From: Candidatus Saccharimonadota bacterium
GTDB lineage: Bacteria; Patescibacteriota; Saccharimonadia; CAILAD01; BJGX01
Direction of reading: 5' to 3'
NCBI GenBank assembly: GCA_016191105.1
Contig: JACPPH010000002.1
Location: 67,268 to 131,267, forward strand
DNA: 64,000 nucleotides
Below are positions 48,589 to 55,523 of this stretch, piece by piece. The notes under the pieces were generated by a model that did not search any database, was not told the DNA's origin, and saw only the letters and a program-made list of their open reading frames with translations. Both the position numbers and the translations under genes were made by a program. The number at the start of each line of letters is the position of its first letter. Position 1 is the first letter of the stretch.

Positions 48589-51240
48589 CTATCTGTTACT
48601 CTTGCTACGGCGCTTGCGCGAACGTGAACTAGAACCAGATCCGCCGTGCTCTCTTCGGGATTTTAGCTGCTCGCTATATTTCTTAGGCTCAATCCCGGCT
48701 AAGTTCGGTTTGTGTTCATAGACGGGGATTTGAGGCTGCTTAGGCTTTTCGGAGTTTTCGCTCCCCCGGCTTTCGGTCTCGTCTTTTTTGCCAAAACCAC
48801 TCCACTTGGCGATATCGGTCTCAACCTCAGCTTTAGATTTACTATAATGCGCCCTGGACTGCTCAATAATGGTCCGGGTAAAGTCGTGTGGCGGCTTGGG
48901 GCCATTAAGGGTTCGGGCACTAAATGGTAGCGAAGTTTCGCCGTCGATACTCATGGTTACATAGACGTTCTGAATGCCCAAATTTACCAGATCGGCTGGT
49001 TCAAAGACTGGCTCAAAGTATTTAGCCAAATAAGTGGCGTCGTCGGCTCCGACTCTGAAGGTTATCATACTGCCAACGTTGCCAAACACGGCATCTTTGA
49101 CCTCATCGGGCATTTGAGCAATGTACTGGTTGGCCATGGTTAAATACAGCCCATATTTGCGGGCTTCAGACAGAATTACAGCAAAACTCTCGGTGGCAAA
49201 GTTCTGGAACTCATCGACATATAAATAGAATGGTCGGCGCTCTTCAATATCGGCAATGTCAGCCCGACTCATAGCCTCAAGCTGGATTTTGGTGATCATC
49301 AAGGCGCCCAATATTCCCGCATTGTCCTCACCAATTTTACCGCGGCTTAAATCGACCACCAGTATCTTACCTTCGTCCATCATTTTTCGTATATTAAAAC
49401 TTGAGCTGCTCTGACCAAGCACGTTACGCACCAGCGGGTTGGCGGTAAAGGCACCAACCTTGTTTAGCACCGGTGCAACTGCCTCCGAGGCGAACTTGTC
49501 GTTCCAGCTAGCAAATTCATTGACCCAAAAGGCCTTAACCACTGGATCCTTCACGTTGTCAACCACCTGTTTGCGATAAGCTTTATCGGTCAGCATGCGG
49601 GTTATACCGAGCATGGTGGAGTCGGGCGATTCTAGTAGCGCCAACAGCGTAAAGCGCAAAATGTGCTCGAGCCTCGGGCCCCAGCTGTCACCAAACATTT
49701 TTTTGAGTACACCCACTATTTCGCTGGCCACACTGTTGCGCTTGTTTTCGTCGTGTACCTCCATCGGGTTAAACCCGATCGGGAATTCGGTGTCAGCTGG
49801 ATTAAAGTAAACTACATCGCCAATCCGGCTTTCGGGTATAAACTTCATAATGTTCTGAGCAAAATCACCGTGCGGGTCGACGACCGCAAAGCCCTGATTT
49901 TGATATAAATCCGACAAGGTTAGCAATTCTAGCAAATAAGACTTGCCCACGCCCGATTTACCAACTATGTAGAGGTGGCGCTTACGATCGTCACGCTTGA
50001 TGCCAAACTTAACGTGAGCCTGACGAAACGTGGTGCTACCTATTAGGCTTAGATTGTCGGCACTAGTGTTTTGTAGGGTTGGCAGATTAGCAGGCGGCTC
50101 CCCCACCTTGGTGGATGTATAGACTACGCCTGGTGTCTCAACTGAAACATGTGGTAAGTGGTACAGGCTGGCTAGCTCCTCGATGTTTAAGACATAACCA
50201 CTGCCCTCAAATAGCCTAGCTTGGTAGGCTTTAAGACCATCCTCCCCGGCCCGTATGCCATTGTTGGTAAAGCCATTTAGGTTTATGGTGTTAAACTGTT
50301 TAAAACCGCCAATTAAAGCCTGCATACGTGATTTGGCAGCAGCATCATTATCGCCTAGATAGCAGATACGGATCTTCACACCATAGCCTAATTTTTGAGC
50401 CTTGGTTTCAACAGCCGTATTAATGGTAGTCTGGCCAGGGCTAAGCTCTTTTTTGTCTTTTTTCTCTTCCTTTTTGCTCTCGGCTGGCGGTTTGAAGGCA
50501 GCGTTAAATAGTGCGCCTACAAATGCAAATGGTGCACTCAAGGCCTTTTGTTGCCAGTTATCAAAAAACTTAGCTGCCTTGCCATTGCGTATCTCGTCGA
50601 CATAGGCAATTGAGCGAGCGTGCCAGCCGTCATCAATTGGCTTTAGCAAGAACTGGACCCACATTTCTTCGGTTTCACTCAAGGAGGCCAAGACGGTTGT
50701 TAGGCCGGCCAGTGGATCTACCTCGAAGGTTAGAAAGGTGCGAATTGGAAAAATGTCGTCTTTGGTAAGTACAGCCTCTGTGGTATAGGCAGTTCGTTCT
50801 CTCACGTCGGCTCGCGAGTAGTCGGCGTCCATAGTAAAGATTTGAACGGTTGGGTATTGAGCGTAGATTTGGCTCTCGACATAATCCTTCAGCTGTTTGG
50901 GCACCCAAACATAGAAGTGAATCATATTGCCTTGGCTGGCAAACTCAAAGCTAATGTGGTCTTGGATGGTGTTCTCTTTGTTAATCTCGGCAGAGGGGCG
51001 CAATATGCCGTGCAAACTAGCAAACATTTGCTCGGCCGAGAGTTCCTTTTTCTCGTTGTTTTTCGGCACTATTATCTGCAGCACAACGTGCTCGGTATTG
51101 ATAATGTTTTCGGCTTTGCGATTATTGCGCCAAATCAAATACATCAGGAAGGCTGCTATCAGAGTCCAGCCCCAGTATGTAAATAAGACGGCGCCAATTA
51201 CACCGAAAATATTAGAGATGATGGTTGTAATGGCTGACAT
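48589..51240 (-). CDS. membrane-anchored P-loop ATPase of the TraD/VirD4 (type IV coupling protein)-like, FtsK/HerA superfamily
   Basis: Two N-terminal TM helices. Walker A 'VGKSGVGKS', Walker B 'YLYVDEFQNF'. Basic C-terminal tail 'SRSRKRRSKSNR'. Confidence 0.6.
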   Translation of the reverse strand: MSAITTIISNIFGVIGAVLFTYWGWTLIAAFLMYLIWRNNRKAENIINTEHVVLQIIVPKNNEKKELSAEQMFASLHGILRPSAEINKENTIQDHISFEFASQGNMIHFYVWVPKQLKDYVESQIYAQYPTVQIFTMDADYSRADVRERTAYTTEAVLTKDDIFPIRTFLTFEVDPLAGLTTVLASLSETEEMWVQFLLKPIDDGWHARSIAYVDEIRNGKAAKFFDNWQQKALSAPFAFVGALFNAAFKPPAESKKEEKKDKKELSPGQTTINTAVETKAQKLGYGVKIRICYLGDNDAAAKSRMQALIGGFKQFNTINLNGFTNNGIRAGEDGLKAYQARLFEGSGYVLNIEELASLYHLPHVSVETPGVVYTSTKVGEPPANLPTLQNTSADNLSLIGSTTFRQAHVKFGIKRDDRKRHLYIVGKSGVGKSYLLELLTLSDLYQNQGFAVVDPHGDFAQNIMKFIPESRIGDVVYFNPADTEFPIGFNPMEVHDENKRNSVASEIVGVLKKMFGDSWGPRLEHILRFTLLALLESPDSTMLGITRMLTDKAYRKQVVDNVKDPVVKAFWVNEFASWNDKFASEAVAPVLNKVGAFTANPLVRNVLGQSSSSFNIRKMMDEGKILVVDLSRGKIGEDNAGILGALMITKIQLEAMSRADIADIEERRPFYLYVDEFQNFATESFAVILSEARKYGLYLTMANQYIAQMPDEVKDAVFGNVGSMITFRVGADDATYLAKYFEPVFEPADLVNLGIQNVYVTMSIDGETSLPFSARTLNGPKPPHDFTRTIIEQSRAHYSKSKAEVETDIAKWSGFGKKDETESRGSENSEKPKQPQIPVYEHKPNLAGIEPKKYSEQLKSRREHGGSGSSSRSRKRRSKSNR

Positions 51241-51291: not shown

Positions 51292-52314
51292 TTAAGCTGA
51301 TTTTTTGAGACCGTAAATGCCCTTACCGACACGCTCGAACTGCGGTTTTTCCTGCAGGTTGAGCACAATGGTGCTGGGCTTAACCTGGCGACGGGCCAAA
51401 ACCCGCTCAATGATTTGGTCTTTTGGTAATGGCGACTCAGCCTTCAATACCTCTTCTATGATATCAGCAACAGTGCCGGCTTTGTAGCCCCACTCTGAGA
51501 GCGCATAAATGCCTCGACCAATCAGTACGAATCGGCTATCTTTAATTAGCTCGTTGTGTACAGCCTGGGTTGTAACAGATTTAGGGTTGGCCTTGAGCTT
51601 GCCGATAGAATGAGCGATCTCGGTGAAGTGCATAGGTCGACTGGCCTTTTTGAGCACCAGATATATCTTGTCGCGGATACTACGAGGATTTACCTCGGGC
51701 CACTGGCTCAGGCCCCACAGGTCATCTAGGTTGGAAATGTTGTGAGCTGTTAAAGCTAATTGCTGCATAGCTTCAGATTTATGTGGGCCATCAATTCGAG
51801 CCATCACCTTGTCGAACTTAACTGGCTTACCTAGATCGGTTACGACATCTACTAATTGACTATACAGCTTTGCCAAGTCACGTTCTGAATAGATTGAGGC
51901 GTCGAGCACCAGATGAATATGATGATCAGTTTTGTCAACAAAGTAAAACCCCGGGTTCAAACGGATTAAGAAACTGACACGTGGGGCTGATCCACTGGCA
52001 GCTTGGAGTTGGTTTAGTAAGACGTCAAAACTGATTATGCCACCGTAGTTAGCCATAATCTGTTGGAGCCGGGCTGTTAGCTCGTGATCATGCTGACCCT
52101 GCTCGCGAATTCGCATGAGAGCAGCCTTCTCTATCTGGCGGACGCGCTCACGAGTAATACCCAGATCCTGACCAATTTCTTCAAGAGTTTGAATTCGACC
52201 GCCAGTAATACCAAACCGACGCCGCAAAATCTCTCGATCGCGATCCTTCTTGAGTGCTTTAAGTGACTGTTCAATTAAGGCGTTAAGCTGTTCGGGCTGA
52301 ATACGATTGTTCAT
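51292..52314 (-). CDS. sigma-70 region-4-like HTH fused to tandem HARE-HTH-like domains (unusual architecture)
   Basis: N-terminal 'DREILRRRFGITGGRIQTLEEIGQDLGITRERVRQIEKAAL' is region 4.2-like. 'DSRFVLIGRGIYALSEWGY' and 'FERVGKGIYGL' resemble the RFxxxGxGxWxL signature of the HARE-HTH / RNAP delta N-domain. Confidence 0.5.
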   Translation of the reverse strand: MNNRIQPEQLNALIEQSLKALKKDRDREILRRRFGITGGRIQTLEEIGQDLGITRERVRQIEKAALMRIREQGQHDHELTARLQQIMANYGGIISFDVLLNQLQAASGSAPRVSFLIRLNPGFYFVDKTDHHIHLVLDASIYSERDLAKLYSQLVDVVTDLGKPVKFDKVMARIDGPHKSEAMQQLALTAHNISNLDDLWGLSQWPEVNPRSIRDKIYLVLKKASRPMHFTEIAHSIGKLKANPKSVTTQAVHNELIKDSRFVLIGRGIYALSEWGYKAGTVADIIEEVLKAESPLPKDQIIERVLARRQVKPSTIVLNLQEKPQFERVGKGIYGLKKSA

Positions 52315-52428
52315 AGTTGTATCACTCTAAATTATGAATGTCGGCCAAAACTTGTAGCAGACAAAAACTTAAGACAGTTAAGATTATAACATCTAAAGCG
52401 CTTTTGGTCAATGATTTTTATAATGTTT

Positions 52429-54714: not shown

Positions 54715-54971
54715 ACTATTCGATAATGCTAATGGTTAATTAAAAATTATGCAAGCACTTGAGGGCATACAAGCCTGTCCCGCATACGATGCTGCTGTAA
54801 TAACAGGATGGAATTCGTTTTACAGCAAATTGATGTGCGGCGATACAGCACTATATATGAATGTGTATATTTTTGTCAAATTAATGGCCTAAAATGCGAA
54901 CACCCCACAACGGGGCGGGATGTCCGCAGGTCGTGGGGCGTATGTTGGTGCGGCACGGTGTCGCGTGCTGG

Positions 54972-55523
54972 CTACTCGCCGGCTAGCTTGAGGCCTCGGC
55001 CCCCCAAGACGTAGACGATGGTGTCGATGTCTTCGTTGAGGAAGCCAAGGTTCAGCATGTCCTCGGAGGTGTGAGCTCGCAACTGATCGATGCTGCCGAT
55101 GCAGTTGTGGTGTAGCCGACGATGGACGACCCTGAGGGAGCTGTCCGGCACGCTTGGGTTGTCCTCGGCGCTGAACAGCTCGTCGATCTCGGCGAAGGCT
55201 TCGACGTAGACCACGGCGTTCAGGAAGTCGGCGTAGCGCTTAGCGATTGGTAGGCAGTCCGTGCCGGCCTGGAGTACGACCTCGGGGTCCTCGTGCTGGA
55301 CTCGAACCTCGAACCAGTCCAGTTGTACCTGGGCGAGACTGAAGCCTTCGATGTCGGCCAGTTCGTCGCGCAAGGCCTTGACCTTGTCGTTGAGCCGCGC
55401 CGTCTGACGCTCAGGGTCTTGGTAGATCCATGGCCGCCCAGAGTGAAGGCCGGGCTTGGTTTCGCTCAGCAGGCGCCAGAACGGGCCCGGGACCTGAAGC
55501 TTTGCTTCACTTTCTGTGTCCAT
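54972..55523 (-). CDS. hypothetical protein (high-GC islet between topA and dprA)
   Basis: About 62% GC, 183 aa, no recognised domain. Confidence 0.4.
   Translation of the reverse strand: MDTESEAKLQVPGPFWRLLSETKPGLHSGRPWIYQDPERQTARLNDKVKALRDELADIEGFSLAQVQLDWFEVRVQHEDPEVVLQAGTDCLPIAKRYADFLNAVVYVEAFAEIDELFSAEDNPSVPDSSLRVVHRRLHHNCIGSIDQLRAHTSEDMLNLGFLNEDIDTIVYVLGGRGLKLAGE

Follow-up and report, generated by a model that had tools for sequence, protein, structure and literature searches.

A sigma-70 region-4 domain joined to four HARE-type winged helices in a probably essential protein of Patescibacteria

In a 64,000-nucleotide stretch of a Candidatus Saccharimonadota genome (contig JACPPH010000002.1; the whole stretch is called the window below), a minus-strand gene next to topA codes for a protein of 340 amino acids. 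In this protein a sigma-70 region-4 (r4) helix-turn-helix (HTH) is followed by four winged helices (WH1 to WH4) of the HARE-HTH type. The gene order on the minus strand is pth, an open reading frame (ORF) of 109 amino acids, dprA, an ORF of 183 amino acids, topA, the gene studied here (the target) and the gene of an 883-amino-acid VirD4-like ATPase; ftsQ and murG are further neighbours in the window by Pfam. The protein is 100% identical to NCBI HYX70_00845, a hypothetical protein from a Candidatus Saccharibacteria metagenome-assembled genome. Because 114 bp alone separate the target from topA, an upstream extension of its ORF is impossible. No structured RNA or tRNA was detected near the gene.

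Two domains are recognized by Pfam. Sigma70_r4 (PF04545) matches residues 24 to 71 (E 1.3e-14, 53.8 bits against a cut-off of 24.1) and HARE-HTH (PF05066) matches residues 213 to 275 (E 3.5e-9, 37.4 bits against a gathering cut-off of 25.9), while sigma regions 2 and 3 gave no Pfam match at E ≤ 1. The original prediction, made from the letters of the window, had called a sigma-70 region 4 without regions 2 and 3, and both parts of that call are confirmed here. Pfam likewise gave no match to the C-terminal domain of the RNA polymerase (RNAP) alpha subunit (alpha-CTD; PF03118), and only 6 residues precede r4. The RpoD and RpoS models of NCBIfam cover the protein with only their C-terminal ~70 residues. 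The best sigma score, that of RpoS, is 55.1 bits against a cut-off of 394, all full-length sigma models remain far below their cut-offs, and the sigma70-ECF superfamily model reaches 33.5 against 42.9. Judged from these profiles, the protein is not a sigma factor; it cannot alone be a member of the sigma70 family because region 2, which provides core binding, −10 recognition and melting, is absent. The delta-subunit model TIGR04567 aligns through its positions 7 to 70 with residues 215 to 275, that is, with WH3 (E 2.2e-8, 34.1 bits, cut-off 42), which is an internal domain and not the N terminus. With a score below the cut-off, no acidic tail and a different architecture, the protein would not be an RNAP delta subunit either.

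An unorthodox sigma factor, or an anti-sigma-like decoy made of r4 that would compete against sigma-A over −35 elements or the beta-flap, was weighed against the content of the window. Apart from the missing region 2, Pfam revealed no region-2 partner among 8 neighbour proteins, and tblastn with r4 or WH3-WH4 returned no second r4 in the window. Neither essentiality nor four conserved winged helices would be expected of a mere decoy. We consider these options very unlikely.

The architecture is sigma r4 followed by four winged helices of the HARE type, of which two are degenerate. An AlphaFold2 (AF2) model built from 36 homologs has a mean predicted local distance difference test (pLDDT) of 82.5 and a predicted TM-score (pTM) of 0.58. 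In this model WH2 spans residues ~164 to 202, WH3 residues 213 to 271 and WH4 residues 282 to 336. Profiles of the four segments, made from 158 diverse family members, were compared by hhalign, which related WH3 to WH4 with 95% probability (E 2.7e-8), WH2 to WH3 with 95%, WH2 to WH4 with 93% and WH1 to WH4 with 89%; none of the four resembled r4 in this comparison. WH4 of the target taken alone (residues 279 to 340) falls below the Pfam threshold for HARE-HTH (E 0.0058, 17.4 bits), and the WH4 segments of 25 out of 28 diverse members match that family (best E 8.4e-7). WH1 and WH2, tested singly, have no Pfam match, and their kinship to HARE is seen only in profile-profile comparison. A search of solved structures with the WH4 profile gave nothing significant. 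Two HARE-HTH-like domains had been proposed from a repeated motif. Both quoted copies are present (RFVLIGRGIYAL at residues 261 to 272 and QFERVGKGIYGL at residues 325 to 336), and the number of related winged helices has to be corrected from two to four.

The conservation of r4 is concentrated on the residues that read the −35 element. r4 was aligned to B. subtilis SigA for residue equivalence, with positions given in the numbering of E. coli sigma70. The equivalents of R584, E585, R586, R588 and Q589 (R55, E56, R57, R59 and Q60 in the target) are invariant in 158 of 158 members, and that of R562 is kept in 157, with free variation at the activator-contact positions K593 and R596. In the winged helices, W200, G201, L202 and W205, the signature of WH2, are invariant in alignment A1. 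The HNELI stretch (253 to 257), which lies in the third and recognition helix of WH3, and the G-R-G wing turn (266 to 268) are at least 95% conserved among the 158 members. The median net charge is +4 for r4, −2 for WH1, 0 for WH2 and +5 for both WH3 and WH4; the C-terminal domains range from +4 to +6, with no acidic tail. From this pattern of charge and conservation we argue that r4 and WH3-WH4 would bind DNA, so that WH1-WH2 may be available for contacts with a protein.

An RGRP-type, AT-hook-like C-terminal tail is carried by 32 of 269 members, and its sequence would suit binding in the minor groove of AT-rich DNA. The PRKRRGRP type of this tail (A1 columns 401 to 418; P0077, P0100, P0111, P0114 and P0118) is missing from the window protein.

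Table 1. Features of the target locus, with positions in the window.
Feature	Position	Strand	Basis and remarks
VirD4/TraD/HerA-FtsK-like P-loop ATPase, 883 aa, membrane-anchored	48589..51240	-	Downstream, co-directional; Pfam TrwB_AAD_bind, DUF87, T4SS-DNA_transf
Target coding sequence, 340 aa plus stop, ATG start	51292..52314	-	ORF list; sigma r4 HTH, then four HARE-type winged helices
WH4, residues 280-337	51304..51477	-	Divergent HARE-HTH, basic; family-level Pfam, hhalign
WH3, residues 213-276	51487..51678	-	Canonical HARE-HTH, basic, most conserved part of the protein; Pfam
WH2, residues 163-206	51697..51828	-	HARE-like, ends in conserved WGLxxW; AF2, hhalign
Long connecting helix, residues 144-161	51832..51885	-	AF2 model
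WH1, residues 78-138	51901..52083	-	Degenerate, slightly acidic; AF2 H-E-H-H-E-E, pLDDT 85-94
Sigma-70 region-4 domain, residues 7-72	52099..52296	-	Recognition helix TRERVRQIE
Promoter-like site TTGACC-17 nt-(TG)TATAAT	52383..52411	-	Directly after topA stop, ~70 nt before start codon; 11/12 consensus, extended -10
topA, 761 aa	52429..54714	-	Upstream, co-directional; Pfam Topoisom_bac, Toprim, Toprim_C_rpt; context rather than conserved partner
Promoter-like site upstream of topA	54850-54879	-	Near-consensus sigma70-type, 11/12

Relatives of the protein occur in at least 462 genomes. For the locus survey we used the 80 best of at least 462 loci, drawn from one-genome-per-species contigs. All 80 belong to Patescibacteria of several classes (Saccharibacteria, Peregrinibacteria/Peribacteria, Gracilibacteria, Abawacabacteria, Doudnabacteria, Nomurabacteria and Minisyncoccales), and the distribution across this candidate phyla radiation that had been expected is thus borne out. 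At 50% identity and E ≤ 1e-30 the family has 593 representatives, nearly all of 330 to 400 amino acids; a first search at E ≤ 1e-3 gave 7,888 proteins, a count that includes matches to r4 only. The search for phage relatives gave nothing longer than r4, and these matches were to sigma genes of phages or hosts. Compared over the same pairs of genomes, the target is 63% identical, TopA 67% and DprA 63%, which indicates similar evolutionary rates. An artefactual fusion of two ORFs was considered and rejected, since the 120 best database matches (327 to 392 amino acids) and the 593 cluster representatives are all single proteins.

Both Pfam domains are listed for 118 of the 120 best matches, and the other two list Sigma70_r4 alone. 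The combination of PF04545 and PF05066 is thus precomputed in databases, and the earlier statement that such an architecture had not been described does not hold. NCBI names these proteins 'sigma factor-like helix-turn-helix DNA-binding protein'. Several members (P0021, P0054, P0111 and P0113) carry the JGI label 'DNA-directed RNA polymerase delta subunit', the apparent ortholog SEML1_0294 is labelled 'RNA polymerase sigma factor RpoS', and a plasmid relative, BCM94557.1, is labelled 'RpoD'. This is systematic sigma/delta mis-annotation, as none of the mislabelled proteins qualifies for those families by its defining features. A full-text literature search found no publication on the function of the family.

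SEML1_0294, a gene of 1050 bp, belongs to Southlakia epibionticum, and its product has PF04545 at 27-72, PF05066 at 225-283 and a domain parse of 'tri-helical, winged, winged, winged' (Wang et al. 2023, Cell, PMC10633639, Table S2). That table, in which both domains are given, is a further reason why the architecture is not new as such. We infer orthology to the target from the same length class, Pfam coordinates, domain parse and topA...VirD4-like synteny. SEML1_0294 is flagged as a core and Patescibacteria-enriched family, and transposon sequencing (Tn-seq) scored it essential at all three time points (ES/ES/ES), the insertions falling from 24 in input DNA to 1, 1 and 2 (PMC10633639). SEML1_0293, the apparent ortholog of the VirD4-like ATPase, is also core and Patescibacteria-enriched; it is non-essential, with read counts going from 5817 to 1372 over passages (PMC10633639). 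Neither gene is mentioned in the text of that paper. The target family is probably essential, the essentiality call itself belonging to the apparent ortholog.

The target gene is usually preceded by a promoter-like site, as in the window (Table 1). We counted sites within 160 nt upstream, using a loose pattern (TTGAnn-N16-18-TAnnnT) and a strict one (TTGACn-N16-18-TAYAAT). The loose site precedes the target gene in 50 of 79 loci, other ORFs in 96 of 610 cases (16%) and random windows in 73 of 1600 (4.6%). The strict site precedes it in 20 of 79 loci, against 8 of 610 other ORFs and 1 of 1600 random windows, and is ~20x commoner than at neighbours. By these counts the gene usually has a strong promoter of its own and is independently transcribed. 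Given its −35-reading residues, the protein may bind this promoter and regulate itself.

The adjacent, co-directional topA was found where it had been reported, and the target had been proposed as a regulator linked to DNA topology. topA lies directly upstream and co-directional in 12 of the 80 loci, and two or three ORFs upstream in 5 more. All 17 belong to one Saccharimonadia group; elsewhere its place is taken by an NTP (nucleoside triphosphate)-transferase gene, secDF, dnaE and others, so that a topA linkage conserved across Patescibacteria is not seen. The strong promoter-like site right after the topA stop points the same way, and many bacteria have dprA and topA as a gene pair. The neighbourhood survey largely refutes a topA-linked regulator of topology, which we consider extremely unlikely.

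Within four genes of the target, the recurrent neighbours are the VirD4-like ATPase (30 of the 80 loci), DnaE (21), TopA (17), HIT (16), DprA (10), UvrA (8), RecA (7) and DnaB (7). The linkage to DnaE comes in three different arrangements, and RecA and DnaB occur jointly in 7 loci, in the order target, an uncharacterized gene, recA and dnaB. A DNA-handling gene lies within four genes of the target at 61 of the 80 loci when the ATPase is included, and at 45 when it is left out; with the ATPase, 110 of 546 neighbour ORFs fall into DNA-handling clusters. This recurring theme under lineage-varying neighbours (dprA-topA in one group, dnaE, uvrA or recA-dnaB in others) suggests an accessory factor of replication, recombination or repair, such as a remodeller of origin or fork DNA, a helper in helicase loading or a coordinator of transcription and replication. 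The essentiality of the apparent ortholog would fit such a role. Furthermore, among the entries of tables S1 and S2 of PMC10633639, which are possibly incomplete, there are no identifiers of DciA (PF05258), DnaC/IstB (PF01695), DnaI or DnaD (PF07261), while those of DnaA, DnaB, primase, FtsK and ParAB do occur. S. epibionticum may thus have a replicative-helicase loader that has escaped annotation, which is a lead and not a result. However, synteny is weak evidence in tiny, housekeeping-rich genomes, the enrichment estimate is post hoc, the target sequence has no likeness to known loaders, and its invariant −35-reading residues point to promoter-type DNA. A replication role of this kind appears quite unlikely to us.

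The loci with RecA and DnaB are from Peregrinibacteria (L057, L061, L065, L069, L073, L074 and L077), where the middle gene codes for a protein of ~290-330 amino acids without a Pfam match, which may be a further partner candidate. In the window, the 183-amino-acid ORF between dprA and topA (54972-55523, minus strand) went unmatched by tblastn (E ≤ 1e-5) at all 80 loci, even where its neighbours are 63% identical; it is either a lineage-specific, fast-evolving gene or no gene. By eye it had seemed alpha-CTD-like, an idea that was dropped, as Pfam gave only a weak SAM-like C-terminal match (E 0.007-0.05).

The most persistent neighbour is the VirD4-like ATPase. Its layout comprises two N-terminal membrane helices, a region of ~370 amino acids without assignment and a VirD4/TraD/CedD/HerA-FtsK-like P-loop domain. 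It matches the VirD4-like, TraD and CedD models of NCBIfam, and the mad8 (E 7.8e-17), HerA and DndH models of PADLOC, the last through the C-terminal HerA/FtsK domain. In the window, a gap of 51 bp without a terminator-like site separates it from the target. A co-directional ATPase gene is found within the next three ORFs at 30 of the 80 loci, immediately downstream in 29 of them, with gaps mostly of −41 to 114 bp and across several patescibacterial classes. At these loci the upstream genes vary, with at least five kinds including topA, the NTP-transferase gene and secDF. The ATPase gene is a probable operon partner of the target.

Three further loci (L049, L059 and L066) have such an ATPase within ~5 kb on the other strand. 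In S. epibionticum, VirB4/PrgI-type genes are found at SEML1_0008-0010, far from SEML1_0293/0294, and are taken to be the type IV secretion system of PMC10633639. The idea of the ATPase as an FtsK analogue was weakened by the canonical FtsK with gamma domain in S. epibionticum.

Relatives outside Patescibacteria appear to be rare, with 7 matches. A tblastn search of plasmids found the 'RpoD' protein BCM94557.1 of the Abditibacteriota plasmid pIAD-21 (BLASTP E 1e-29 over residues 10-338 of the target). WP_166195114.1 of Pontibrevibacter, a 'sigma factor-like HTH DNA-binding protein' of 1017 amino acids, matches residues 13-274 (BLASTP E 2e-12). In Pfam, homologs P0271-P0275 combine RNA_pol_A_CTD (PF03118) with Sigma70_r4, and two of them also have HARE-HTH, which is one more precedent for the architecture. 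These relatives share with the target the whole sigma4-WH1-WH2-WH3-WH4 module, the recognition helix S/TRERxRQxE and the NCBI name. They differ from it in their length (566-1017 amino acids) and in an N-terminal extension, which in most carries an alpha-CTD/helix-hairpin-helix (HhH) domain. The patescibacterial family, unlike them, is short, chromosomal, core and probably essential, and has no defence genes nearby: none was found among the annotated neighbour clusters of the 80 loci.

Several of the relatives outside Patescibacteria are the first gene of an operon, in which an MmeI/Eco57I-type methylase (PglX/DrmMI-like), a DUF4007 protein (SspB/BrxA-like), a 156-amino-acid protein, a protein of ~1370 amino acids and PglZ follow. 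The ~1370-amino-acid protein is SspC/BrxC-like in pIAD-21, and PglZ follows in L085. Of the four records that hold these relatives, two are plasmids and the two others are contigs with plasmid replication and partition genes (TrfA/RPA; in one also ParA/ParB). The Pontibrevibacter protein (L082, 6582-9635, plasmid NZ_CP049815.1) lies between dndBCDE with a cysteine desulfurase and PbeA, inside a phosphorothioation-dependent restriction system; it shows weak alpha-CTD/HhH matches, and PADLOC sees only its r4, via the MzaA model. The loci of this conserved, plasmid-borne and BREX-like operon are L083 (9001-20437), L084 (9001-20883), L085 (2126-14008) and L081. No description of the alpha-CTD, r4 and HARE first gene of this operon was found in two papers on defence systems. 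Aravind and Iyer in 2012 reportedly placed HARE-HTH in proteins of bacteria that unite traits of the RNAP alpha subunit with those of sigma factors, and the architecture with alpha-CTD, r4 and HARE was recovered independently here.

Papers from the laboratory of these authors describe HARE-HTH as a reader of modified DNA, and arrays of sigma-HTH and winged HTH as units that anchor on DNA or scan it, frequently in combination with HerA/FtsK translocases (PMC10853773, PMC12839542). In the main rival explanation, the protein would be the DNA-scanning partner of the VirD4/HerA-FtsK-like ATPase, in a module derived from defence or from mobile-element 'capture'. The HTH array would select or mark DNA, be it self, foreign or host-derived and with or without modification, and pass it on to the translocase to be imported, exported or cleared. 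The co-directional linkage behind at least five different upstream genes, the kinship of the ATPase to mad8, HerA, DndH, CedD and TraD, the position of the relatives at the head of BREX-like operons or within a Dnd/Pbe locus and the published pairings of such arrays with translocases all speak for it. In a variant, the target would be a repressor or antidote that keeps the ATPase harmless, which would fit a gene pair of which the first is essential and the second dispensable. However, in S. epibionticum the ATPase is dispensable while the HTH protein is essential, therefore the essential job does not need the ATPase. At 50 of the 80 loci no ATPase is adjacent, and the target is equally conserved there. 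Moreover, up to five genes away from the target the window has no gene for a methyltransferase, a nuclease or PglZ, and the conservation of the protein is far above that usual for defence sensors. We regard a scanning partner as a serious possibility, but an unlikely one.

The reading that we prefer, with a probability of roughly 0.4, is that this multi-HTH protein binds double-stranded DNA and acts as a general chromosome-bound factor at promoter-like sites. The region-4 HTH would read a −35-like hexamer as sigma-A does, and the basic, highly conserved WH3-WH4 pair would grip adjacent DNA, with help from the AT-hook in some lineages. The neutral-to-acidic WH1-WH2 could serve as a protein-docking platform. 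RNAP would be the likeliest docking partner, since three modules trace back to its subunits, namely r4, the delta-type HARE domain and, in the relatives, the alpha-CTD. Sigma binds the beta-flap through region 4, and delta is anchored on RNAP by its HARE-HTH. The VirD4/HerA-FtsK-like ATPase encoded just downstream would be a second likely partner in many lineages. The domain layout, the distribution, the kept DNA-reading residues and the neighbourhoods are observed, and the essentiality of the apparent ortholog is published; DNA binding, the −35-like target, RNAP docking and this division of labour are what we infer. An RNAP-associated factor, which was among the options first listed, is a plausible candidate.

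Several observations weigh against a general factor that docks on RNAP. The recurrent neighbours are genes of replication, recombination and repair and a DNA-translocase-like ATPase, and no transcription gene was found among the annotated neighbour clusters of the 80 loci. The sigma-A of S. epibionticum carries its own region 4, so that a second flap-binding r4 would either face competition from it or have to work away from the polymerase. The target is without the polyanionic tail on which the activity of delta depends, and the model confidence of WH3 is moderate only (pLDDT 58-79). Finally, the closest relatives outside Patescibacteria lie in defence loci, where the presumed task of such HTH arrays is DNA scanning and not RNAP binding.

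A bolder form of the same reading is doubtful in our view. According to it, the protein would be an additional, essential part of the transcription machinery throughout the phylum Patescibacteria, or of the interface between transcription and replication, with r4 on −35 DNA and/or the beta-flap and its winged helices, strung together as in TFIIE or RPC62, at work on promoter or fork DNA. Its origin would lie in the domestication of a defence module that sensed DNA modification. If this reading is true, the protein would be a new bacterial general factor without counterpart in model organisms.

As noted above, the domain combination is already in databases, and the form with alpha-CTD is said to be in the literature as well. 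New is the short patescibacterial form with four HARE-type winged helices and strictly kept −35-reading residues. Also new is that this gene is core and probably essential, with its own promoter-like site, DNA-handling and VirD4-like neighbours and nearest relatives in BREX-like or phosphorothioation loci. The protein is probably the Patescibacteria-wide, probably essential version of a module of sigma4 and HARE-type winged helices.

Patescibacteria account for a large part of the diversity of bacteria, and how they regulate their genes has been described as virtually unknown (PMC11665869). The target gene belongs to a small set that is core, group-enriched and essential in the only published Tn-seq, yet it is labelled RpoS, RpoD, delta or hypothetical; a correction of the widespread sigma/delta mis-annotation is due. 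Its invariant −35-reading helix and four winged helices offer a testable handle on transcription or DNA handling in ultrasmall cells, now that S. epibionticum and N. lyticus are genetically tractable. The kinship with BREX-like and phosphorothioation loci suggests that a DNA sensor of conflict systems was domesticated into a housekeeping factor. The protein is a good candidate for a Patescibacteria-specific general factor with a putative mechanism, and it is open to experiment.

Among known systems, the sigma-70 factors RpoD and RpoS share with the protein region 4.1/4.2 with all −35-contacting residues; in contrast to them the protein is without regions 1.2, 2 and 3, and its scores are far below the cut-offs of the full-length models. 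B. subtilis SigO-RsoA is an example of a two-subunit sigma. Unlike in systems of that type, no separate region-2 protein was detected near the target.

The Firmicutes delta subunit (RpoE) has in common with the target the HARE-HTH winged helix. However, delta consists of a single HARE domain and a polyanionic disordered tail, whereas the target has four winged helices and sigma r4. The N-terminal HARE domain of delta anchors on the beta' shelf and jaw of RNAP, and its disordered tail, with a net charge of −47, displaces nucleic acids (PMC7749165).

The best whole-chain structural matches of the target are the tandem winged-helix arrays of the SelB C-terminus, Dcc1, UFL1, Pol III RPC62 and TFIIE-beta. 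These are likewise strings of three or four winged helices, and the likeness is at the fold level only (8-13% identity, TM 0.2-0.3), with no sign of common descent or function. The type IV coupling protein/relaxosome pair resembles the target locus in its adjacent VirD4/TraD-type ATPase and differs from it in that no relaxase, oriT or mating-pair genes were found near the target in the window. The defence-linked proteins with alpha-CTD, sigma4 and HARE-HTH are set apart by their N-terminal alpha-CTD/HhH extension and by their operons with a PglX-like methylase, DUF4007, a BrxC/SspC-like ATPase and PglZ, or with Dnd/Pbe genes.

RbpA and CarD of Actinobacteria and GrgA of Chlamydia are lineage-specific general RNAP-binding factors. 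The target has no sequence or fold kinship with them. In concept, however, it resembles them as a phylum-restricted, essential or near-essential accessory factor that would bind DNA and, putatively, RNAP.

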